Below are positions 2,190 through 60,700 of a stretch of 64,000 nucleotides of DNA, in pieces. Both the position numbers and the translations under genes were made by a program. Under the pieces are notes generated by a model. The model worked only from the letters and a program-made list of their open reading frames with translations, searched no databases and had not been told where the DNA came from. Origin of the DNA: Haliotis cracherodii (taxonomy: Eukaryota); the NCBI RefSeq assembly GCF_022045235.1, contig NW_027266297.1, positions 682,001 through 746,000 of the forward strand, in the 5' to 3' direction. Numbering within the stretch: the stretch's first letter is position 1; every line of letters begins with the position of its first letter.

Positions 2190-2440
2190 TTGTTTGTTTG
2201 TTTGCGCTCACCAATATCCCAGCTATATGACGGCGGTCTGTAAATAATCGAGTCTGGATCAGACAATCCAATGATTGACATCATGAGCATCGATTTAAGC
2301 AATTGGGATACGATGACAAGCATCAACCAAGTCAGCGAGCCTGACCACCCGATCCCGTTAGTCGCCTCTTACGACAAGCATAGTCGCCTTTTACGGCAAG
2401 CATTGGTTGCTTAAGATCTATTCTACCCAGGATCTTCCCT
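2190..2440 (-). mobile_element. Dispersed SINE-like repeat family A (non-tRNA head), copy 1
   Basis: Same ~250-bp sequence recurs at ~4822, 5655, 39180, 50027, 54183, 55356, 56505 and 57420; the family's sense strand ends in GCTGAGTGCGGCGTTAAACAACAA-like tail. Confidence 0.8.
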
Positions 2441-2526
2441 GACTATCATGGGAAATATAAAATAAACATGAATTCATCATGAAAGCGTCAAAACATTTAC
2501 ACGTCATCTCAGGCTGAAAGTAATGG

Positions 2527-4330: not shown

Positions 4331-4821
4331 TGATTATAATGCACAGAATTTTGTTCCGATGGTATATGTACTTCGCTGTTGACGGGAACCAGTAGAAAGA
4401 TGATCAGGGAACACATGTGTACAAGTTCCTGTGACATATTGTATTTCCTCTGAGCCAAGATAAGGACATAAAATTATACTGTCTGTCAATTGGTGGTGGT
4501 GCCACATTCTAAAAAAGCACAATCATCTACATAGGTGATACTATCATCTATACGTACGTAGATGAATTTGAGAATGTGTCACCATTCCGCTTCCATACTT
4601 TTCATTAGTGAATGTAGCCAATGCAGCACTGTTGTTGAAATATTAAGCGCCGGGTATATTACCTGCCGAATTTGGAAGCTTGTTCATAGAACAAGACCGC
4701 CGAGGCGCCTGTTAGGGGAAATACGGTAATCTTCTGATTCTGCTGTTTATATATTTAGTCACAAATTGCACTTTAAAAAGTGTCGGTCTCAAATACCCGG
4801 GGTCATAGGTGCGCGTGCTTT

Positions 4822-4915
4822 CAGTCACAGGTTTGTCTGGACCAGACTCGATGATTCACAGACCGCCGTTATGTTGCTGATCGACTGCTGAGTGTGGCAT
4901 ACAACAACAAACAAA
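4822..4915 (+). mobile_element. Repeat family A, 3' fragment
   Basis: TTGTCTGGACCAGACTCGATGATTCACAGACCGCCG...GCTGAGTGTGGCATACAACAACAAACAAA matches the family tail. Confidence 0.65.
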
Positions 4916-5139
4916 AATGTTCATCTGCAAGCGCGGATAGTATTCAAGTACACCTATATGATTCCAGAAACAATTTTTATCTGATTAATTGTGAAGTGTA
5001 ACAACATTCCCTCCATCTTTAGGAAGTAATCAATATGTAGATCTAGTCTGGACAATGTTTATTAACAACTGGAAGAAGTAAGAATAATTTTCCTGACTAA
5101 ACACGAATACACCTGATGAACCCCATTCTACTCAGGATA

Positions 5140-5654: not shown

Positions 5655-6066
5655 GTTTGTTGTTACGCCGCACTCAGCAATATTCCAACTGTGTGATGGC
5701 GGTCTGTAAATAATAGAGTTCTGACCATACAAACCAGTGATGGACATCATGAGCATCGATCTATGCAATTTGGATACAATGATATGCATGAACCAAGTCA
5801 GCGAGCCTGACCACACAATCCCATTAGTCGCCCCTTACAACAGCATGCAGGGTCCACTCTAGGAATTTTCTGACGTTGGCCCTTTATGTGAAAATTGTAA
5901 ATATTCCAGAGGTACGCCCATACATCACAATGTTAAATTAGCCCATTGTATTTGAAAATATGGGCCTTTTTTCAATTTTAGGGGCTATAAGCACAAGGCC
6001 CCACCCTAGAATTATCCGTGAGCATGGGTTTCTGAAGACCAATTCTAACCCGGAATCTTCACGGGA
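5655..6066 (-). mobile_element. Repeat family A copy interrupted by a nested insertion
   Basis: Family sequence stops at 5847 and resumes at 6021. Confidence 0.8.
5848..6020. mobile_element. 173-bp MITE-like insertion with 6-bp TSD AGCATG
   Basis: AGCATG at 5842-5847 and 6021-6026; imperfect TIRs CAGGGTCCACTCTAG / CTAGAATTATCCGTG. Confidence 0.65.
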
Positions 6067-7412
6067 CTTAAATGCCTTTTGTTCAAGGTTTGGATACCAG
6101 CCACATTACTGCTCACCGTTGATAATAATGCATATTTATAATGTGCCTGATCCATATCCTAGAATGTACTCATAACGCTACACAAAGAACTAGACTGGAC
6201 AATGTCTAGTTGAGGCAGTGGAGAGTAAGGAGGTGTGTTTGCAGTCTGGACCTTGTATTGTTGTTGATCAGTGTTCCATAGAACTGTGTCAATGTGGGAA
6301 AATGATGCTAAGTGCCTGAAAAGTCCAAATCCAGAGGTCTTCCAGCACGCTGAACTGTTCATGCTTGTATAGGACCATGAACAGTTTTATTGAAGGACCA
6401 AGTTTATTTTGTCAGTGCCAGCGTTTGTTTTTCCAGGTTTGTTGCAGGTATTGAACTATTTCGTTATCATGTCATAGTCAGATAAACGATAATATGTGAA
6501 GAAATATTTCACATGAATTTTTCTCAATAGATGAGCACATTTGATCATGTTTACCATGTTTAGTATAATAAAAAAAAATATGTTTGACACAGTTTGGTAA
6601 GTAGTTGAACTGTTTACCGGATGTTAACATCATTAAGAACCACATAAATGCATTTCAATAAGTGCTCCTATCTAACCACGTTAACTTGTCTAAAACAGCA
6701 TGATGCCACACTTTTTTTTATTTTATGTTTCACGGATCTATTCCAGTTTTTTCCACACAAGGTCAGTCGAAATAAAAATAAAAATAAATAGCTATGCCAA
6801 TCATTTAAATATTTATATGAAAGTCATTCTGCCGTGAAGTTAAGACTGCAGCTGGTTCTTGAATCCTGGATAGTAGTGGAGACATGGAATTTATATATAA
6901 CATTTTGTGTTGTATAAGACTAAAGAGGGTTAATATTACTATCGGGAGACATAATAAAAATACATCTTTTTATGTTTAATTTATTTCTTTTCCAGCTGCT
7001 TTTCAGTAGCCACAGCAGGCCCATGAAACAGTAAATTAAAATGCGTGGCCTGATGTTGTATTTCCCATGTACAACAACATGTACAACAACATGTACAACA
7101 ACATGTACAAAATCATGAACAAGATCCTTTGTTGCAGCTGCTTCAACAATGTTGACAGTTTTTGGGGATGTGCCGTAGTGTCTTGATTGCACAATGGCAT
7201 GATGCTGTTTGTAACGTCTGCATTACCAACAGCACAGCATTCTTTTCCCATCTACCTACTGTAGTGTTCTGTAAGGTAAGTACTTCTGGGACATGCTGCT
7301 TGTCATGTCATTCTTCATTAATGTAGTGATCATGTAGTCAGGCCAATGTCAGAATATTTCTAGAGTGAACCCTGTATTCTGAATAATCAAAGGCAAAGTC
7401 CTAAGTAGAATG

Positions 7413-32781: not shown

Positions 32782-33730
32782 CTGAAGACACCAGGTGTTA
32801 CACAATGTCTATGTCAGTAAGTGAAGACACCAGGTGTTACACAATGTCTGTATTCATAAAGTGAAGACACCAGATGTAACACAATGTCTGTATGTTCTGA
32901 AGTGAAGGGGGCGGTCGGGTAGCCTAGTGGTTAAAGCGTTTGCTCATCACGCCGAAAACCCGGGTTCGATTCCCGACATGGGTACAATATGTGAAGCCCA
33001 TTTCAGGTGTCCCCTGCCGTGATTTTTCTGGAATATTGCTAAAAGCGGCGTAAAACCATACCCACTCACTCACTCTGAAGTAAAGACACAATGTCTGTAT
33101 GTTCTGAAGTGAAGACACCAGGTGTAACACAATGTCTGTATGTCATGAAGGGAAGACACCAGGTGTAACACAATGGCTGTATGTCATGAAGTGAAGACAC
33201 CAGGTGTAACACAATGTCTGTATGTCATGAAGAGAAGACACCAGGTGTAACACAATGTCTGTATGTTCTGAAGTGAAGACACCAGGTGTTACACAATGTA
33301 TGTATGTCATGAAGAGAAGACACCAGGTGTTACACAAGCTCTGTATGTTCTGAAGAGAAGACACCAGGTGTTACACAATGTCTGTATGTTCTGAAGAGAA
33401 GACACCAGGTGTAACACAATGTCTGTATGTCATGAAGGGAAGACACCAGGTGTAACACAATGGCTGTATGTCATGAAGTGAAGACACCAGGTGTAACACA
33501 ATGTCTGTATGTCATGAAGAGAAGACACCAGGTGTTACACAATGTCTGTATGTTCTGAAGAGAAGACACCAGGTGTAACACAATGTCTGTATGTTCTGAA
33601 GTGAAGACACCAGGTGTTACACAATGTATGTATGTCATGAAGAGAAGACACCAGGTGTTACACAATGTATGTATTCATAAAGTGAAGACACCAGATGTTG
33701 CACAATGGCTGTATGTCATGAAGACACCAG
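32782..33730. repeat. 41-bp minisatellite with an embedded SINE
   Basis: Unit GAAGACACCAGGTGTAACACAATGTCTGTATGTTCTGAAGT. Confidence 0.93.
32907..33075 (+). mobile_element. Short tRNA-derived SINE family B, full length
   Basis: A-box TAGCCTAGTGG, B-box GGTTCGATTCC, tail GGAATATTGCTAAAAGCGGCGTAAAA plus (CACT)n; flanked by CTGAAGT; homologous copies at 51108, 55915 and 59073. Confidence 0.85.
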
Positions 33731-38730: not shown

Positions 38731-39179
38731 TTCTTAGTCTCCACCCAGACATGTCTCACTGGCAGACATCGTGCAACCCTCATCAAGCCTGCAGATGGTC
38801 GCTATGGTGGAAGTTTCGCAGACATGTCTATCCTAATGATTTTAGTGTAAACAGAGCTAAGGATTTCAATCAAAAACCCAATTTTTCTCAACCCATTTCT
38901 ATGGATTCTTTTTCAAGAGAGAAAATAAACAACTATCTCACTAAGCATTGTGCAATATAGGGGCGGTAGGGATCAGGTCAACTCTTCAGTGGCAGTCGAG
39001 TCAAATTTGGTATTGATAATTAACATGCTTAGAGAGAGGTTCCATTGTAGATACTTAAAGCATTTTGTAGGATTATAGCTGAAGACACTTATAATATTTT
39101 TTTTTGTCACTGGGGTCGGCTTGTCTGCAGAAATGTGGTAGGACTTACATCTGTCTGCTTGTCCGCTGATACTTGGCAC

Positions 39180-39405
39180 CACGTGAAGACGGTTAGAATT
39201 GATCTTCAGCAACCCATTCTTGTTGCAAGAGGCGACTAACAGGATCGGGTGGTCAGGCTCGCTGACTTGGTTGATGTATATAATCGTATCACTATTGTGT
39301 AGATCAGTGCTCATGAAGTCAATCACTGGCTTGTCTTGTTCATGCTTGATTATTTACAGACTGCCATCACATAGTTTGAATATTGCCAAGTGCAGTGTTA
39401 ACAAT
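39180..39405 (+). mobile_element. Repeat family A, full-length sense copy
   Basis: CGTGAAGAC...GATCTTCAGCAACCCAT...AAGAGGCGACTAACAGGATCGGGTGGTCAGGCTCGCTGAC... Confidence 0.8.
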
Positions 39406-44422: not shown

Positions 44423-44444
44423 GTAAGCATAACCTGCCCTCTGA

Positions 44445-44757
44445 ACCTGGTAGAGGTGGTCTGGTGGGGATTCTAGAGTAGAACAAGTCCCCAGTAGACC
44501 ATGCTTACAGAGCCGACCAGGTGGAGATGTGTGGTCAAGCTGTGTGGACCTGGTAGAGGTGGTCTGGTGGGGATTCTAGAGTAGAACAAGTCCCCAGTAG
44601 ACCATGCTTACAGAGCCGACCAGGTGGAGATGTGTGGTCAAGCTGTGTGGACCTGGTAGAGGTGGTATGGTGGGGATTCTAGAGTAGAACAAGTCCCCAG
44701 TAGACCATGCTTACAGAGCCGACCAGGTGGAGATGTGTGGTCAAGCTGTGTGAACCT
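44445..44757. repeat. 103-bp tandem triplication
   Basis: ACCTGGTAGAGGTGG starts at 44445, 44548 and 44651. Confidence 0.93.
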
Positions 44758-45161
44758 GCTGATGGTGTGATTGTAACCCAGTGATGTCACAAAGGTGTCC
44801 CTTTGCTCTGTCAGGATCCATTGGTTGTGGGATTGATTAAGATGCTTACTTGGTCATTATTGTCTAACAAAGTTTTTTGTAAATGGTTCCAATCTGCGGT
44901 ACTTTGGTCTTACCTCCCACATTATGCTGACACAGCATGTTATGATAACTAACCAGTCCTATCCACTACCAATGCTGTTATGCTGTTGAGGACCCCTAAT
45001 GGCAACTAGATATCAGTATTTTATATGTCTGCATGACTCGATAGACGGAAGTGTTCATGCAATTATCAGCTACATAGCTTCACATGTGTTTTACTGCAAT
45101 GAAATTTGAAGATAAGCAAATGTTATGAACTCCGCTTATTGAAAATGTTCTCCGTTGTGAG

Positions 45162-50026: not shown

Positions 50027-50264
50027 TTGGTTTGTTGTTTAAAGCTGCACTAAACAATATTCCAGCTATATGACGGCTGACTGTAAATACTGAAGTCTGG
50101 ACCAGACAATCCAGTGATTAATATCATGAGCATCGATCCATGCAATTGGGATACAATGACATGTATCAACCAAGTCAGGGAGCCTGACCACTCGATCCCG
50201 TTAGTCACCTTTTACGGTAAGCATGGGTTGCTGAAGACCTATTTTACCCTGGATCTTCATGGGA
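50027..50264 (-). mobile_element. Repeat family A, full-length copy
   Basis: Matches the 2190 and 55356 copies end to end. Confidence 0.8.
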
Positions 50265-51107
50265 CCAAGGAAATGTAGTCACATTTACAGGTCAATGTCA
50301 TTTTTAAAACAGATCTTGTATATACCGATTATTTCTTATCCAGAATACTGTCAAATTGACATTTTTACTGCAGGGTTGAAGATGGAGTCCTTGTGCTAAT
50401 TTGTGTGAAGCTTTAATGGATTCATTTATTTTATGCAGTTGCTTTAATCATCTACATGTACGTATAAATAAATCCTTGCCTGTCATTTTAAGCCATATTG
50501 TACTTGCTCTCTGGTGTGATGTGTGTTGCAAGTGAACAAGATTACTAGACAATCTGTGATATGCAGTAAACAGTGAAATAAAATAACTTGTTTGTCATCA
50601 TTAGCTGCTTGGGAAGACAAATAAATACAGTTGGTTTGTTCCATGTGCGACATGTTTCCAGTGAACTTGCTGACAGAACCAGTTCCAAGGTTCAAATATC
50701 TGCATGGTTTGCATGGCAGAACATGGGAGCTGTGCCACAACACTTGTGAGAGGGGTACAGAAAGTACCTGATCTAGACTAAGAGTTGTCAGACTTTCACA
50801 AAATGTGAGCTTTGACCTCACTGAATGTGCCAAACTTAATCCAAGGTCCATTGCAGGAAATCCTGTTAAATCTTTATGCCATATTCAAAAGAAACAATTA
50901 CCTAAAATGTGTCCTTGACCTTTGACAAATGCAATTGACATAGGATTTAAGAAACATGTAAACAAAGATCCATGCCTCAAACTGATTGATATAAGCATGT
51001 TTTACATCAACCTTTAAGTGTCAAGCTGCAGAAACCATGATGACAGTTGACATGGATTTCAACTCTTAGTTTTTCATTGCAATGTTCCAGTACAGATGTT
51101 AGTATGT

Positions 51108-51258
51108 GGTGAGTGAGTTTGATTTTGCGCCACTTTTAGCAATATTCCAGCAATATCACGGAAGGGCACACCAGAAATGGGCTTCACATGTTGGGTCTCA
51201 AATACGGGTCTTTGGTGTGATGAGTGAACACTTTAACCACTAGGCTACCCGACTGCCC
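51108..51258 (-). mobile_element. SINE family B copy
   Basis: Reverse complement of 32907-33075 (TTTAACCACTAGGCTACCC). Confidence 0.8.
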
Positions 51259-51670
51259 CTTACTGTATGATGAAACCTTGAGCATTCGCCAAAGCCTTTC
51301 AAATCAAGGCCCCCATCCTAAAAGGACTCCGATCTGCCCCTGGCCACGTCTGTCTCTGTCTCTGTGTGCGCGCTCACCACGCACGCACGCACGCACGCAC
51401 GCACACATGCACGCACGCACGCACAGTCAAGAAGCTGATGTTCTCATTGCATCAATCCAAGTTTGACGTCTTTTATCTCAAACAAATCTTTCAAAATGAG
51501 AAAAAAATCAACATGACAAAAAATATGCAAACAATTTAATATTTGATTTTGTACAAATGGCAGATGAAATGGAAACAGTACAACTACGTATATACATGGA
51601 CAACTGTATGTACAACGTTCTTACACCGGAGACTAACATCATGAGTTCTGCACTGGAGACAAAGGCACAT

Positions 51671-51724: not shown

Positions 51725-54700
51725 CTGAAACAAACAAAATTAAATATGTGACGGGTCCAACTTCAAAGTTAAGTAAAACTCCATTCACATGGATGCATCA
51801 TCAGACCCACCATGGTATTACAAGCATACGTTGCTGACTAGAAGCATACGTTGCTGACTACAAGCATACGTTGCTGACTACAAGCATACGTTGCTGACTA
51901 CAAGCATACGTTGCTGACTACAAGCATACGTTGCTGACTACAAGCATATGTTGCTGACAGTAACCTGCGTCCCAAGCTCAGTGATGTCTTACACAGAACA
52001 AGACTATAGTCACAACACATGCATGTCGGTCCCAAGGGTCAACCTCCAGGGAACGTGTTCTCACTGTGGTCCCTCATGACCAACCGCCCCACACCCCTCT
52101 ACAATCAGCGTACCTCTGTACTGTTGGCATCAACAACCACCCCACACACCCCTACAATCAGCGTACCTCCATACTGTTGGCATCAACAACCACCCCACAC
52201 ACCCCTACAATCAGCGTACCTCCATACTGTTGGCATCAACAACCACCCCACACACCCCTACAATCAGCGTACCTCCATACTGTTGGCATCAACAACCACC
52301 CCACACACCCCTACAATCAGCGTACCTCCATACTGTTGGCATCAACAACCACCCCACACACCCCTACAATCAGCTTACCTCCATACTGTTGGCATCAACA
52401 ACCACCCCACACACCCCTACAATCAGTGTACCTCCATACTGTTGGCATCAACAACCACCCCACACACCCCTACAATCAGCGTACCTCCATACTGTTGGCA
52501 TCAACAACCACCCCACACACCCCTACAATCAGCGTACCTCCATACTGTTGGCATCAACAACCACCCCACACCCCTCTACAATCAGTGTACCTCCATACTG
52601 TTGGCATCAACAACCACCCCACACACCCCTACAATCAGCATACCTCTGTACTGTTGGCATCAGCAGCTGGTTTGTCATGGCCGTTCTGTTTGGGGGCATC
52701 TCCTGAGCCATCTTCCTGCCGAGATTTCTTCGATTCAGGGTCATCTGCATCCTCGTCAGGTTTACGCTTGAAATATACCAGACACCGTTTCATTTCTATC
52801 ACAATGTGGAGAGAACACCAACATGGCACAGGTCTACATTCTTAAAGACATACTGAGAATGATAATGGTGGCATATTAGGGAGATTCAAACATATAAGGT
52901 ATGGATCCTAACATGACAGGCACATAACTGACTAACAAAGTGCTGCCACCTGGTGTGTGTGGTCGTAAGTGAACAATGAGTTGTATCAGATAAGAACTGG
53001 CGAAGATTGCTGCCTGGAAGCCTGGGGTATTTTATTAGTGAAATCTAGATGCTTGTGAGAATCCCTACAAATGTGATCATGTCAACCTACCTTCCTCCTG
53101 ATGAGATGGCTGATGTCAGAGGCTTTCTTCACTTCAATCTGGAACACAACATGAGACATGGAACAACATGAGACGTGGAACAACATGAGACGTGGAACAA
53201 CATGAGACGTGGAACAACATGAGACGTGGAACAACATGAGACGTGGAACAAGATGAGACTCGGAACAACAAGAGACGTGGAACAACATGAGACTCGGAAC
53301 AACATGAGACGTGGAACAACATGAGACGTGGAACAACATGAGACTCGGAACAACATGAGATGTGGAACAACATGAGATGTGGAACAACATGAGACGTGGA
53401 ACAACATGAGACGTGGTACAACATGAGACGTGGAACAACATGAGACGTGGAACAAAACATGAGACGTGGAACAAAACATGAGACGTGGAACAAAACATGA
53501 GACGTGGAACAACACGAGATGTGGAACAACATGAGACGTGGAGCAAGCCATGAGGTGACAAACATCAACCCCAACTATCAGTGCAACGATGTCTGGAGAG
53601 TTAATGTTAACAGTGTTTAGTCAACTCACTGAGGTCAGTGATCCAAGCCCAAACTGGCCAGCTCCGTTCACCAGGTAAATAGCACTTACACCCATGTATG
53701 GAGTTGCCAGCTCCGTTCACCAGGTAAATAGCACTTACACCCATGTATGGAGTTGCCAGCGAGGTTAACCAGCACTCACACCCATGTGTGGAGTTGCCAG
53801 CGAGGTTAACCAGCACTCACACCGATGTGTGGAGTTGCCAGCGAGGTTCACCAGCACTCACACCCATGTGTGGAGTTGCCAGCTCCGTTCACCAGGTAAA
53901 TAGAACTCACACCCATGTGTGGAGTTGCCAGCTAGGTTCACCAGCACTCACACCCATGTGTGGAGTTGCCAGCTCCGTTCACCAGCAATCACACCCATGT
54001 GTGGAGTTTCCACCTAGAAACTAATCAAACTGGGATTCGAACCCACAATCATAGGTTTCTGGGGCATGCCCAAGGGACGTAACTCTGCACAGAGAATCAC
54101 AGCGCCTTACATGTTGATTTATTTGTCACATTAAGAAGCAGTTTTTTAAATGAGGCCGTAAGAGTTTAGTCCGGGCCTGAAGTTTGTTGTTTATTTCACA
54201 CTGCACTCAGCAATATTCCAGCTATATGATGGCAGTCTGTAAATAATCAAGTCTGGACCAGACAATCCAGTGATTGATACCATGAGCATCGATCCACATA
54301 TTTGGAGTACGATGACATGCATCAACCAACGGGTCCAGGGCCTGAACAGAACAGTGTGGGTCCTGATGGCAGCCAGGCAGTTTAATTTTATTTCAAACAC
54401 TGGTGCGCCGCTCAGAGACAGGACCGTCAGATTGGAGCTACAAGACATGCTCACTCCTCACACTCACCGGGGTTGCTGCTGTCGTCGTTTCACTGGTTGA
54501 CGTAAACTGAAGCAAGATTTGAAGACAAGATTTACAACATCCATTAGCAAACATCTCAACATTTGAACCAATTTCACAATATTTACGTTTCTTATTGAGC
54601 ATTGGCCGATCCTCAAAGTTCGACCATTGAAATCCCTACCTATATAAACCTAGAAGAAAAGCAGGTCCAACAACAGAAAGAAGAAAACAGCCTTATTACT

Positions 54701-57700
54701 CCCTGCCATGGGGCACATTAGAATTGTGTATGTTCATATGGTAGTGAATATACATGGAGAAAGTGAGGGAACTCCAGAACAAAAACATTACTGCATCAAC
54801 TTCAGAGAACGTTTAGTGAATGGCCAAATTGCAAGCACTATAGAGCCGATATGTCACATTTCCCGCTATTCATTTCACAGAAGCGAGCAGTCACATGACA
54901 AGCAGGAGAAATATGATTGCGATAAAAAGTAAAAACATTATTTCAAAACATCAAATGTAACTGTTTAAGTTGTTTGATAGTCTTGTAGACAGAATTTATA
55001 TTATAACTTTAATCTGATAATTCAGAATACATCATCAATGCACCCCATAAAGCATGGTTGAACACTGTCATATAAAACAGGGACCCTCTCCACTCACTGT
55101 GGTCAGTGTTCCTCCAACAATTTCTTTGGTCATCGTCTTCAGCTGTTCGAGATTCTTCTTCTCCTCCTCTGCGTCTTCAATCTGCAAATAAAAAACATCA
55201 GTAGAAACAAACTGATAAAAACCCTGGCCAACCCTTCCGTTAGCTACAGTAAGTGTAGGTTTGGCTGTAGGGAAGTCCCAATAACTAAAATAGCAGCAGA
55301 CATCACTGCAGGGTACTGTGCCTCAGGTCACTCAACCCTTCATTTCTTTTCCAATTTGTTTAACGCCGCACTCAGCAATATTCCAGCTATATGACAGCGG
55401 TCAGCAAATAATTGAGTCTGGACAAGACAATCCAGTGATTGACATCATGAGCATCGATCCACGCAATTGAGATACAATGACATGCATCAACCAAGTCAGC
55501 AAGCCTGACCACCCCATCCCGTAAGTCGCCTCTTATGACAAGCATGGTCGCTTTTTAAGGCAAGCATGGGTTGCTGAACTATTCTTCCCTGGATCTTCAC
55601 GGGTCTTAAAAAGATGAAATTGGCCGTCACCTGTACGTCATCACGTCCTGTGTGAAGAAGTTGAAATCTAACATTGCAATCACAAGGACCCCCTTGGTCA
55701 CAATCTAATCTAAAGGTCAGAAGGTCAGATCAAATGTTCTCATTTGGCCAAGGACATTCCCCTAACTGAAACTGACAAGTCTGTTTACCTTGGATGCAAT
55801 ATCGGGCAGGATTTCCTTTAACTCAGAGATTTCTTTTGTTGCCTGTGTAACTGGGTCATCGGAACTTGAGAGTTCTGAAAACACAAAGGAAAATCTCATT
55901 TAAAATATAGTGAAGTCAGTTTGGTTTTACGCCTCTTTTAGCGATATTCCAGCAATATCACGGCTGGGGGACACCAGAAATGGGCTTCAAACATTGTACC
56001 CATGTTTGGAATCTAACCCGGGTCTTCGGTGTGACGAGCAAACACTTTAACCACTAGGCTACCCCACCACCCCATTTCAAAAATAATTGTAACATTTCAC
56101 ATTAAACTGCCAGCAATTAGTGCAAACATTGTTTACTCCTTAGGGACCAGGAAAGTACACACTGAACACCCTTGACGATCCAGTGCATATCTCCAATATC
56201 TGCCATTACCACCTGCCCCAGGTCCCCACCATAGCTCCATCCATCCATCCATCCATCCATCTCTACAGCGCTAAAACTAAACGGCCAATCAAACTATGGT
56301 GTGAAGAGTGAAACACGACTTGTTTTGTACCGTCTCATACAACTGGGACTCTCAACACTCTGTAAATCGTTAGTGTGCCAGGTATTTGGCCATGCTGTAT
56401 GACAAAGATGGCTCATGCACCATATTGGATCGTGAGCGAGGTATTGTGGTATCTATCACATCGCACAGGTCGTGTATCGTCCAAGCCCTGGTAATTACAT
56501 GATTAATTGGTTGATGCATGTCATCGTATCACAATTGCTGGATCGATGCTCATAATGTCTATCACTGCTTGTCCAGACTTGATTATTTACAGACCACCGT
56601 CATATAGTATGGTATTTCCAGTGTTACATGCTTGCTGTATTAGAGGGTAAAATCATCAAAACTCTTCTACCCTGTGTATAGGGCGACCCCCTTTGAAAGC
56701 CTCCTAATTCTAGGAATGAATAACTCACCTTATTCATGGCCCTCAATGGCAAGTATTTCTTCTAAATCGGTGCTTACCTTTTCCCTTTCCCTTGGACTGC
56801 TCTTCTATGACCTTCTCAAGGTGACCTGGAAAAACAGGGAATGATTTATGCAAACATTTAATCTTTTATTTTCTAAAACAAATTCTCATCAATTTCTTAC
56901 AGGCAAGTAAGTCTTGATATCATTACTAAGTGGGTGACAAATTCACTTCCCACGTTGCAACCCCAGGCAACCATTGGAGCCACACACAGCAACCATCTGA
57001 GCCACACACGGCAACCATTGGAGCCACACATTGCAGCCATCGGAGCCCAGACAGGCAACCATCGGAGACATTCGAAATTTGGTCAAACAGGTCTTCTACG
57101 TCAAGCTATGATTCAAAGAAACTTATGGTAACAGATTCACGACTCACCAATTTTTTCTTCGATGACTTTTATTGCTGCCCTGTAGTGTTCGACCGACTCC
57201 TCATACTTCTTATCAAACCCGAACGCTAGTCCCAGCTGGTAATGTCTCACAACGTTAAGGCACAACAGCTCACCAGCACCAGGGACACTAAACAGCTCAC
57301 CAGCACCAGGGACACTAAACAGCTCACCAGCACCAGGGACACTAAACAGCTCACCAGCACCAGGGACACTAAACTACCTGCCCACACACTGCCACGAATA
57401 ATCTCAACATGGATGCCATTTGTTTGTTTCTTGTTTAATGCCCCACTCAGCAATATTCCAGCTATATGACGGTGGTCTGTAAATAATCAAGTCTGGGCCA
57501 GACAATCCAGTGACTGATATCATGAGCAATGATTCACACAATGGGGATAAGATGACATGCATCAACAAAGTCAGAGAGCCTGACTACTCGATCCCATTAG
57601 TCGCCTCTTATGACAAGCATAGTCGCCTTTTACAGCATGCATGGGTTGCTGAAGACCTATTCTACCCTGGCAAGCATGGGTTGCTGAAGACCTATTCTAC

Positions 57701-60700
57701 CCTGGCAAGCAGGGGTTGCTGAAGACCTATTCTACCCTGGCAAGCATGGGTTGCTGAAGACCTATTCTACCCTGGCAAGCATGGGTTGCTGAAGACCTAT
57801 TCTACCCTGGCAAACATGGGTTGCTGAAGACCTATTCTACCAGTGAATGAAGTATGACAGACACACATCTCCTGAGAAAAGCTGGTTTCCGGTGAGCTAA
57901 AAACAAGTGCTTACCGGGTGAGCTAAAAACAAGTGCTTACCGGGTGAGCTAAAATCAAGTGCTTCCCGGGTGAGCTATTAACATGTGCTTCACAGGCAGG
58001 AATATCTGCACAACGTAGACTTGCATATTTATTGCACTACACTTGAGGACAACAGATCATTCATAATCAAATCCTTAAGACATTGCACCCAACAACGTAA
58101 ATGATTCTTGTATTAGCGAGGCTTAACACCACTGAGTATTTCAGCAGTGTATAATCACAACTTCAGTGATATGACGGTGTGTCAGCTGAATGTTGGTGTA
58201 AAGTTTGAAGTGTTGCAGGTCCTGAATTCACCACGCTGGTGAAACCCAATAGGACAGGTATGACAAATTAGGAATGTCATGAGCATAGGGACCTGAACCC
58301 ATGGTCATAGGTTTCTGGTATGCTCAAGCGACGGCAGTCTGTACAGCGACCTGCTGTCCTCAGGTGACAGGGCCGCCTGTGCCTCGCACGATGACATCCA
58401 GGCATGATAGGAGCTATGGAACTGGTGCTGAAGCCTAACACTGAATGTGACAATGTTTCAGACAGTGATCATCCAAAGGATACGATTCAGCAAGCAATCT
58501 GTCAGTGGCTTCAAGGTGTTTCTTTTGGATTTCCAGACAAGCCTTGAAGTCCTCGGTAGCCTGCTCGTACTGCTCTGAAACACAATGTCAACAACCGTAT
58601 TGTTGTGTGCGGACTGTGCCAAAACCCAATCCCCACCATGTCTCTATTACATCAAGCATATCTGAGTCTTAGGACACGCATGAACATATGTTGTAAATAT
58701 TATATATATGATCGTAAATACTAATGGACTTGGGCTTGAGACTTGTGCCTAAAGGCGCAGACTGTCATGTTGAGGCCTTTCCGCTCTCTGGGCAGACAAT
58801 CTCCGACCAGACCACACAGGGAGTTGCTACCTAGCCAGGGATCAAACCCCAGGCCTTTCCGCTCTCTGGGCAGACAATCTCCGACTAGACCACACAGGGA
58901 GTTTCTACCTAGCCAGGGATCAAACCCCAGGCCTTTCCGCTCTCTGGGCAGACAATCTCCGACTAGACCACACAGGGAGTTGCAACCTAGCCGATTCTCA
59001 CCATGCACAAACTGGAATTCTGGAGACTTCTCTATTGTTTAATGATGTTTTGGGTGTTATTTATCATCAAACATGTGAGTATGGTATTATGCCGCTTTTA
59101 GCAATATTCCAGCAATACAATGGCGGGGGACACCAGAAATTGGTTTCATACATTGTACCCATTTGGGAATCGAACCCAGGTCTTTAGCATGATGAGCTAA
59201 CACTTTAACCACTAGGCTACCCAAACACACCTATCAAACATGAAGAGTGCTAACAATGCATGAAAGCTGAGAAATTGGATAACATTTATATGAAGTTATT
59301 TATGGTCTAGTCTCCCCAAACCAATGTTGTGACATCCCTGGTGTGTCTGTAGAACTAGGTACAATGTTGTGACATCCCTGGTGTGTCTGTAGAACTAGGT
59401 ACAATGTTGTGACATCCATGGTGTGTCTGTAGAACTAGGTACAATGGTGTGACATCCATGGTGTGTCTGTAGAACTAGGTACAATGGTGTGACATCCATG
59501 GCGTGTCTGTAGAACTAGGTACAATGGTGTGACATCCATGGCGTGTCTGTAGAACTAGGTACAATGGTGTGACATCCATGGCGTGTCTGTAGAACTAGGT
59601 ACAATGGTGTGACATCCATGGCGTGTCTGTAGAACTAGGTACAATGGTGTGACATCCATGGCGTGTCTGTAGAACTAGGTACAATGGTGTGACATCCATG
59701 GCGTGTCTGTAGAACTAGGTACAATGGTGTGACATCCATGGCGTGTCTGTAGAACTAGGTACAATGTTGTTACATCCATGGTGTGTCTGTAGAACTAGGT
59801 ACAATGTTGTGACATCCCTGGTGTGTCTGTAGAACTAGGTACAATGGTGTGACATCCATGGCGTGTCTGTAGAACTAGGTACAATGGTGTGACATCCATG
59901 GTGTGTCTGTAGAACTAGGTACCTGTTTCTAGGCTGACTTCCCCCAGCTTCAGGTACGCTTGTGCTGCCTTCAGTTGGGCTTCTTTTGTAGTTTCCCTGA
60001 AGAGAAAGTGGCATGTGTAGAATCTAGAGATGTTTCCGACTGACAAATCTATGGAATCCAGCATGAGCATCCGTGATAAAACATCTGACTGCCGAAACTT
60101 CATCAGCTCGCTCTTATGTGTGAGGACAACAAAAATAATGAAGTCAGCAAAAAAAGCAGCAATGTATTTCATATTGGTTGGCTGAAAACTTCTAAATGGC
60201 TTCGATTTAACAACAGAATGAATGCTTCTGTGCCGGAAATCCAGAAAATCTCTGCTTAATGCTTTTGACACTTGGATGAGAAATGGTAAAAAAAAATCTG
60301 ATCTTAAGGCTAAAAAAATATAATAGTCTTGGTTCTAAGGCACCGCCCGCAAGTTCGCCGCACGTTTCATTTTTATTTCCATTTTTAAAAACAAAACACA
60401 CCAAAAAACCCTTAAATATTCCAAGTCTAACAGTAGTCAAATACTGTATTCCAGTATTTTACTTACCAAGGAATACATTTATGTAGGGAGGTTGATTGTT
60501 GATTGTACACAATTGCTTATTGATTACACAACTGTTTTTTGATGACATACTAGTTTTAACAACAAAAAAAAGGACACCGCCCGCACGCACTATATTTTCA
60601 AAAACCATTGTCTGAGAACCATTTCTTTTATTTTTTTAAGCCTAATATACACTGCATACACAATTGCCAAAGATGAGTTGCCTTTCACAAAGTTCAAACT

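Follow-up and report, generated by a model that had tools for sequence, protein, structure and literature searches.

The question raised by this stretch of Haliotis cracherodii DNA (64,000 nucleotides, the whole of which is called the window here) is what sort of 5' end a short retroposon has when it carries no tRNA head, and what that end might do. The repeat concerned, family A, is an interspersed, TSD-flanked SINE of about 250 bp, sharply delimited at its 5' end and lacking a tRNA head. The initial annotation had proposed that its copies begin with a fixed, structured RNA head containing a pseudoknot, perhaps a ribozyme.

Copies and boundaries of family A

One copy of family A lies at 55355-55605 (minus strand), and there are eight other copies or fragments in the window; six of these nine have heads.

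55355..55605, minus strand: copy of the family A SINE (251 bp) from the duplicated-unit subfamily, in a decayed state (sequence alignment)
50030..50265, minus strand: copy with a single-unit head, the best score in the window (57.4 bits)
39178..39404, plus strand: copy with a single-unit head (42 bits)
5655..6067, minus strand: copy with its head interrupted by a 173-bp insertion at 5848-6020
2204..2443, minus strand: copy with a duplicated unit and a variant 5' start lacking the C-run
57422..57845, minus strand: copy without the 5' start, a 35-nt head fragment being present in about six tandem repeats
54182..54329, minus strand: 5'-truncated, headless copy
56507..56620, plus strand: 5'-truncated, headless copy
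4810..4917, plus strand: diverged 3' fragment

Five copies had originally been said to share a start, and this holds for four of them, the heads of which begin at 55605, 50265 and 6067 (minus strand) and at 39178 (plus strand), but the fifth has at 2437-2443 a variant start that lacks the C-run, and hence helix P1 of the fold described below. A similar start is seen at L012:1494-1506; it accounts for two of 36 copies, and is possibly the mark of a small lineage with a few further examples among the genome candidates. The consensus first given for the head fits a single-unit subfamily, but not the 55605 and 2440 copies or a sixth head that had been missed (57670), so that three of the six window heads carry a duplication of a 22-nt hairpin unit. 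A 20-nt head pattern, allowed up to three mismatches, matches three times in the window as against not at all in 100 shuffles, while genome-wide a first look yielded 1184 family A candidates in 1.18 Gb, and exact matches to two 33-nt single-unit patterns number 1048 (with GTCG) and 746 (with GCCG).

To judge from 30 genome copies chosen on head positions 30-72 and read by eye, 19 start at G1 (+/-1), seven are truncated within the head and four are ambiguous; upstream of them no sequence is held in common except in one segmental pair. In contigs of another sample the point of departure from the SINE is G1 in 138 cases, +1 in 56 and +3 in 19. Exact TSDs of 9-14 nt accompany nine of the 30 copies (the other 21 have none at that strictness), and of these nine, five end at G1 or +1 and four at -1 to -3. 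The base preceding G1 is G in 24 of 109 copies, which in a genome of 42% G+C is near background and so gives no hint of cap copying. Five of the seven head-truncated copies (L081, L083, L084, L087 and L102) start near position 11-13, which suggests that there may be a second preferred 5' boundary there.

No tRNA was found in family A by ARAGORN, which bears out the original description of the head as non-tRNA, and the Rfam search then called for gave no match on family A. As had been said, there is no A box in any of three clean copies; one B-box-like 9-mer does however occur in the SINE body, at +127 to +150. Family A thus lacks the tRNA head with A and B boxes by which a tRNA-derived SINE is recognised. 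At the 3' end the tandem repeat is (CAAA/CCAA)n, preceded by a tail (taken from the clean copy L090) that aligns to the 3' end of a LINE of the same genome, encoding AP endonuclease, RT and RNase H (APE-RT-RNase H), with local scores of 36 and 39, where shuffled sequence gave 18.2 +/- 2.9 and none of 2000 shuffles scored as high. Since the LINE with the matching tail ends in a different short repeat, the partner of the SINE is probably a sister subfamily.

Some neighbouring features may be recorded here. A likely coding exon on the minus strand, with an AG acceptor and a GTGAGT donor, lies at 55097-55181, and several nearby family A copies share its orientation; the 55605 copy, being about 170 bp upstream of it, is probably intronic. 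The insertion at 5848-6020 has terminal inverted repeats, though imperfect ones, together with a 6-nt duplication, and on these sequence features is probably a small DNA transposon. A second SINE family, with a tRNA head and a related tail, is present at 55909-56084, 32905-33070, 51112-51259 and 59075-59241. Heads or head fragments have also been amplified as minisatellites, with units of 35, 50 and 74 nt (57635-57845 in the window, L018 and L070).

Predicted fold of the head

The head, called here the module wherever it occurs, is predicted from comparison of its sequence across families to form two tandem H-type pseudoknots, P1/P2 and P3/P4, with a hairpin in the last loop. Mapped onto the 55355-55605 copy, the elements of this fold are as follows.

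55512..55605, minus strand: LP head module (30.7 bits with model R1)
55600..55604, minus strand: P1 5' strand, the 5'-terminal C-run, pseudoknot 1 (19 of 20 families pair here, with weak covariation)
55592..55598, minus strand: P2 5' strand, preceded by a near-invariant U at 55599 (covariation)
55587..55591, minus strand: P1 3' strand, a G-run within the P2 loop (covariation)
55581..55585, minus strand: conserved AGAAU loop of pseudoknot 1 (conservation line)
55576..55580, minus strand: P2 3' strand remnant, 3 nt being deleted in this copy (alignment)
55563..55575, minus strand: P3 hairpin of pseudoknot 2, NGYA (55575-55572) with UGCN (55566-55563) (RNAalifold and held-out sequences)
55571-55567, minus strand: C-run in the P3 loop, pseudoknot 2
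55546..55567, minus strand: first 22-nt hairpin unit, mutated (alignment)
55524..55545, minus strand: second 22-nt hairpin unit, its core near-invariant across families (alignment)
55518..55520, minus strand: G-run 3' of CUAA, pairing with the P3 loop to give P4, pseudoknot 2 (covariation)
55355..55405, minus strand: tail homologous to the APE-RT-RNase H LINE at its 3' end, followed by (CAAA)n (local alignment)

This particular head is decayed: its inner stem is short of 3 nt, its folding z is -0.22, no better than shuffles, and it scores 30.7 bits against 57.4 for the 50265 copy. The evidence for the fold therefore comes from comparison between families, in which pairing partners were swapped from one family to another. 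With hand-set anchors (which lean towards the double-pseudoknot model) and 20 families, P2 makes 5.05 Watson-Crick pairs with its own partner as against 3.39 with swapped ones (z 7.1), and P4, in which the C-run before UGC pairs with the strand after CUAA, gives z 6.3, neither value being reached in any of 200000 permutations. When registers were left free the figures were z 5.9 for P2 and 5.2 for P4, using 21 of 23 representatives (the two dropped have no AGAAU), and with automatic anchors, which misplaced several rows, 535 of 200000 permutations did as well for P2 and none for P4, P1 not being significant. P1 itself, between the 5'-terminal C-run and the G-run of the loop, can pair in 19 of 20 families, but its covariation is weak (z 1.8 with hand-set anchors, 2.8 with free registers) because it is mostly a C-run against a G-run. 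RNAalifold, run on a MAFFT alignment built from sequence only, revealed P3 (NGYA with UGCN); in nine of nine held-out sequences the variable pair of this helix is intact, and all four Watson-Crick types occur (one row of this set is misaligned, yet gives A-U in either register).

On that MAFFT alignment of 21 heads, in which two clusters are represented twice and one row is shortened, 83.7% of cells pair under the full model, with 64 double changes, a result equalled in none of 500 shuffles; slid registers pair only 33-48% of cells. As related sequences can beat shuffles of this kind, it is the slid-register and held-out controls that carry the weight. G-U alternation in P1 and P3 indicates the sense RNA strand.

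Of the four helices first drawn by hand, the inner stem is P2, and its covariation is that just described. The outer stem CCCGT/ACGGG shows none across families (z -0.4 with hand-set anchors, -1.4 with free registers), and nor does the proposed pairing of the loop GGG with a downstream ACCC (z 0.2 and 0.5); the two together have three double changes, and 224 of 500 shuffles were equally high. The GTCG/CGAC hairpin is not confirmed either: it is broken by the GCCG variant, of which the genome has 746 exact copies, GTCG having 1048, although a three-pair stem with a six-base loop survives in that variant; invariance of the motif in the 21-row alignment is uninformative, because the alignment was selected on it. 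What stands of the original proposal is that the head is structured and pseudoknotted, whereas two of the four helices were wrong: covariation across families is strong, as the annotation had proposed to check, though for another fold. It had also envisaged that the head might prove to be an internal piece of a known LINE UTR with heterogeneous ends, and this is half true, in that it belongs to known LINE 5' UTRs (PMC4758252) and in the LINE of this genome lies internally, behind a true HDV-like ribozyme; with ends that are not heterogeneous and covariation that is strong, however, the structured-RNA claim stands. It must be added that for the SINE alone ViennaRNA, which excludes pseudoknots, gives a minimum-energy fold that prefers the outer stem, and that the distance from the head start to the core ranges from about 41 to 59 nt among families, the start tracking the first helix.

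A possible divergent module is apparent at 44460-44524, within three 103-nt tandem units at 44442-44758 (plus strand). This candidate scores 18-20 bits, with stems that differ but are complementary and a core that is partly deleted, and the stretch can also be folded as one long hairpin; fragments related to the tandem units form satellites on C6 and C13.

The module in a LINE, in metagenomes and in viral contigs

The genome holds an intact 6.2-kb LINE of the APE-RT-RNase H type that carries the module 60 nt inside its 5' end, with P2 fully exchanged. Immediately ahead of the module comes a textbook HDV-like fold that has L3 and J4/2, a minimal form without P4, and the two are seen abutting at LINE 5' ends (e.g. 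L121:799-860 and L173-L177). This fold scores 27.5-28.5 bits against Rfam HDV-F-prausnitzii, under the 44-bit threshold, while an HDV-like descriptor finds three of three LINE 5' ends, none of five SINE heads and, weakly, one of 31 other heads. The J4/2 motif is exact in 539 of 588 LINE modules genome-wide. We found no literature report of HDV-like ribozymes in this LINE clade. Two subfamilies of the LINE are 74% alike in ORF2 and 93-95% alike across their first 335 nt. One small-RNA run shows an accumulation of short antisense reads over the 5' UTR of the LINE, module included (L121:860-891 and 976-1007); these reads are piRNA-like on the strength of that one study.

The suggestion that the SINE head is itself HDV-like is contradicted by this contrast between SINE heads and LINE ends, and by topology: the nested order P1, P2, P3/L3, P1.1, P4, J4/2, P2' is absent from the SINE head, where covariation gives serial knots, and the partner of the strand after CUAA is the C-run that immediately precedes the hairpin, not a P2 strand. 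A resemblance does exist, in that head positions 1-36 align to L121:799-860 with P2 strands and flanks alike (local score 27, reached in one of 2000 shuffles); the same positions align to the LINE's own module with a score of 36. The likeness to the ribozyme may reflect recombination between the two modules, or descent of pseudoknot 1 and the HDV scaffold from a common source.

Thirty LINE modules were selected by the module sequence only. All 30 retain the HDV-like stretch ahead of it, 29 from G1 onward, and in no case does a copy begin at the module itself. Cutting or initiation at the module's own edge would cost new copies the ribozyme part, so that the module probably does neither. This bears on the idea of a new class of self-cleaving ribozyme cutting at its own 5' edge, which we regard as distinctly unlikely. 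It would suit the compact double pseudoknot and invariant core, the sharp start without an extra G, and the exchange of the module among LINE clades, as is described for HDV-like ribozymes (PMC6765202); the LINE copy, which has core changes, may have been silenced since gaining the HDV-like ribozyme. Besides the retained upstream sequence, however, the idea has to contend with the persistence of diverged tandem modules, with the amplification of subfamilies that have a duplicated or changed core, and with the absence of hits both to Rfam ribozymes and to the HDV descriptor; in the two RdRp contigs described below, moreover, cutting would remove the 3' end.

An exact 23-nt core pattern recovered 50 heads at 44 metagenome loci, falling into 22 clusters. 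These clusters and the genome's LINE have only the head in common, homology ending there. The invariance of the core is partly built in, because homologs were selected on it, and the LINE module shows that it can vary at four positions. Downstream of the module there are single-ORF AP-endonuclease elements (L038, L055 and L069), RTE-like by layout, as well as an ORF with no Pfam match (L054), one that is Baculo_F-like (L056) and a two-ORF element on a MAG contig (L107). The Baculo_F-like envelope ORF is at L056:3-1043 (minus strand), and a short ORF in L060 looks similar. Diverged tandem modules persist in L038, L070 and L110. Of eight matches in GTDB contigs three are due to chance, and the other five look like eukaryotic contamination carrying true modules. 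Rfam found nothing on the module in the window, 20 metagenome loci and five further loci, nor, in the same material and at E values up to 5-10, any hammerhead, twister, pistol, hatchet or twister-sister.

Full modules with new compensated stems were found in three of 15 viral loci. Two are in sense orientation, 23 and about 73 nt past the stop of an RdRp ORF, each within 190 nt of the contig end; the third, L211:1959-2033, is intergenic on a 212-kb contig, close to a DNA ligase gene, and about 115 nt ahead of a long ORF without a Pfam match. The exact 23-mer had no match in viral contigs, a looser scan (at least 120 stretches) revealed no further module among the 80 loci listed, and Rfam gave no match on the viral modules. 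On sequence evidence, then, the module appears to work as RNA in unrelated hosts, without LINE proteins or a DNA stage. Self-cleavage in the RdRp contigs would sever the 3' end, although these may conceivably be endogenised copies.

As an RNA genome gives a DNA promoter no role, the RdRp-contig modules also speak against an internal promoter with the RNA fold secondary, as Matetovici et al. presumed. That reading is very unlikely in our judgement. The module does stand in for a tRNA head in an oyster SINE (PMC4758252), its start is fixed, tandem head arrays resemble promoter monomers, and the 22-nt unit tolerates duplication, as might a site bound by protein on DNA. A promoter would not, however, call for compensatory helices that include G-U pairs, and none of the 30 LINE copies starts at the module, the stretch between start and core is of variable length (about 41 to 59 nt between families) with the start following the first helix, and there is no cap-like extra G.

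More doubtful again is a binding or folding signal for the element's own RT or RNP, serving packaging or 5'-junction formation like the R2 5' pseudoknot. R2 protein does bind such a pseudoknot (PMC6765202), and of 30 LINE copies extending as far as the module 29 are completed to G1, but the module is common to elements with unrelated proteins and to RdRp contigs.

Possible function and relation to known systems

The explanation that we tentatively favour, at somewhat less than even confidence, is that the head is the LP domain of a LINE-dependent non-autonomous retroposon, and that its two stacked pseudoknots would block 5'-to-3' exoribonucleases, thereby setting and protecting the 5' end. A little more tentatively, the module might constitute a new xrRNA class, a tandem double pseudoknot present in thousands of copies in animal genomes, through which host decay would carve SINE 5' ends without promoter or ribozyme, and which RTE-, Nimb- and other LINEs would have exchanged with one another, with RNA viruses and with a large DNA virus.

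On this model the SINE would be transcribed by read-through from host promoters, and after decapping or cutting an exonuclease would trim the host leader as far as pseudoknot 1, the first helix of which is predicted to employ the very 5'-terminal bases. XRN1/XRN2 would be blocked at that point, so setting the exact element start and protecting the uncapped RNA, which might then be copied by the RT of an I/Nimb-type LINE recognising the tail. In the LINE, cutting by the ribozyme ahead of the module would yield a 5'-OH terminus, which is not a substrate for XRN enzymes, so the ribozyme part would survive and the module would act as a second barrier. The roadblock would thus account for a module that fixes the start when it comes first and spares upstream RNA when a ribozyme comes first. 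For R2 templates a stable 5' fold is of help, and it has been proposed to be an exonuclease barrier (PMC11331408).

Several observations count against a roadblock: the 22-nt duplication lies inside pseudoknot 2 in a subfamily that amplified, a variant start without P1 exists, seven of 30 copies are truncated inside the head, P1, the helix most important for a 5' block, covaries only weakly, the minimum-energy fold of the SINE alone favours the outer stem, and the LINE's module, with its core changes, could be a silenced relic. Ordinary frameshift pseudoknots, moreover, fail to stall Xrn1 (PMC10321173). Three raw, shallow small-RNA runs have 1, 19 and 2 short reads on the SINE, with no peak at its start.

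The usual place of xrRNAs is just inside the viral 3' UTR (PMC8374639), but a location there would suit a translation enhancer or a replication signal just as well. In tombus-like viruses, 3' translation enhancers lie just after the RdRp stop. It is conceivable, if on balance unlikely, that the module is a cap-independent translation enhancer, or an RNA that binds the ribosome or initiation factors: it would be a cap substitute on ribozyme-cut LINE RNA and on viral RNA, through which the SINE would reach ribosomes making LINE protein. The module lies directly behind an HDV-like ribozyme, which leaves no cap, it precedes ORFs in LINEs and in a large DNA virus contig and follows RdRp stops, and its near-invariant 20-nt core would be suitable for binding by a protein or rRNA; an IRES role has been suggested for the HDV-like 5' folds of R2 (PMC6765202). 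An enhancer alone, however, leaves unexplained both the exact SINE start at the first helix and the replacement of a tRNA head by an LP head, which PMC4758252 describes.

With viral xrRNAs (flavivirus classes 1-2, diantho/luteovirus and coremin; PMC8374639) the module shares a compact, pseudoknot-based form with paired 5'-terminal bases, and a position just inside viral 3' UTRs, also in tandem. It differs in having no three-way junction but two serial H-type knots, and in its presence in cellular retroelements. The hallmark of xrRNAs is a 15-16-nt ring around the 5' end, in that same account. The pseudoknot expected of them is predicted here from covariation, and Rfam placed neither the viral nor the SINE modules in a described class. 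Whether eukaryotic genomes hold xrRNA-like folds is a question raised in PMC8374639, and the module bears on it, as it does on how LP-SINEs come to be transcribed without a Pol III head (PMC4758252); with only 70 nt and a defined fold to handle, both questions could be put to a simple in vitro assay. If the module does act as a roadblock, retroelements would have a third means of defining their 5' end besides ribozymes and internal promoters, and it would also serve as a compact stabiliser of RNA. Whatever its function, a motif conserved between retrotransposons and viruses that has no Rfam family deserves curation.

The HDV-like ribozymes of R2, L1Tc (Pr77), RTE and Baggins are likewise 5'-terminal, about 70 nt long and built of two pseudoknots with A-rich joining strands, and are swapped between LINE clades, but the knots of the module are serial rather than nested, without P3/L3/P1.1, and the true HDV-like fold of the LINE is separate and upstream.

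The closest relatives of family A are the LP-SINEs Hdi/Hmi_LP, Lsa_2 and Sgl_LP, whose 5' domain of about 70 bp also occurs in Nimb-17_LMi, I-3_DR and RTE-9_CPB (Matetovici 2016, PMC4758252). There the LP head was presumed to be a promoter, section 10 gives no fold for it, and the partner LINE was called unidentified. Searches of the literature outside subscription journals, Repbase Reports and Dfam did not find the motif in full text, nor any paper on the fold or function of the head; the SINE type and head sequence are already published, and the structured RNA in them is undescribed. Family A has a head shared with LINE 5' UTRs, flanking variable TSDs and a 3' tandem repeat with a LINE-related tail, matching the LINE-derived head of about 70 bp, TSDs and short tandem-repeat tail given for LP-SINEs in PMC4758252. 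It is putatively the same as Hdi/Hmi_LP, length being the one feature compared (255 bp for the Hmi_LP consensus, about 250 bp here), and the scallop heads labelled 'Nimb-17 homology' in Fig. S2 of that paper have the same motifs by eye. What distinguishes the present case from the LP-SINEs as described is the covarying double pseudoknot, its viral occurrences and a candidate partner clade.
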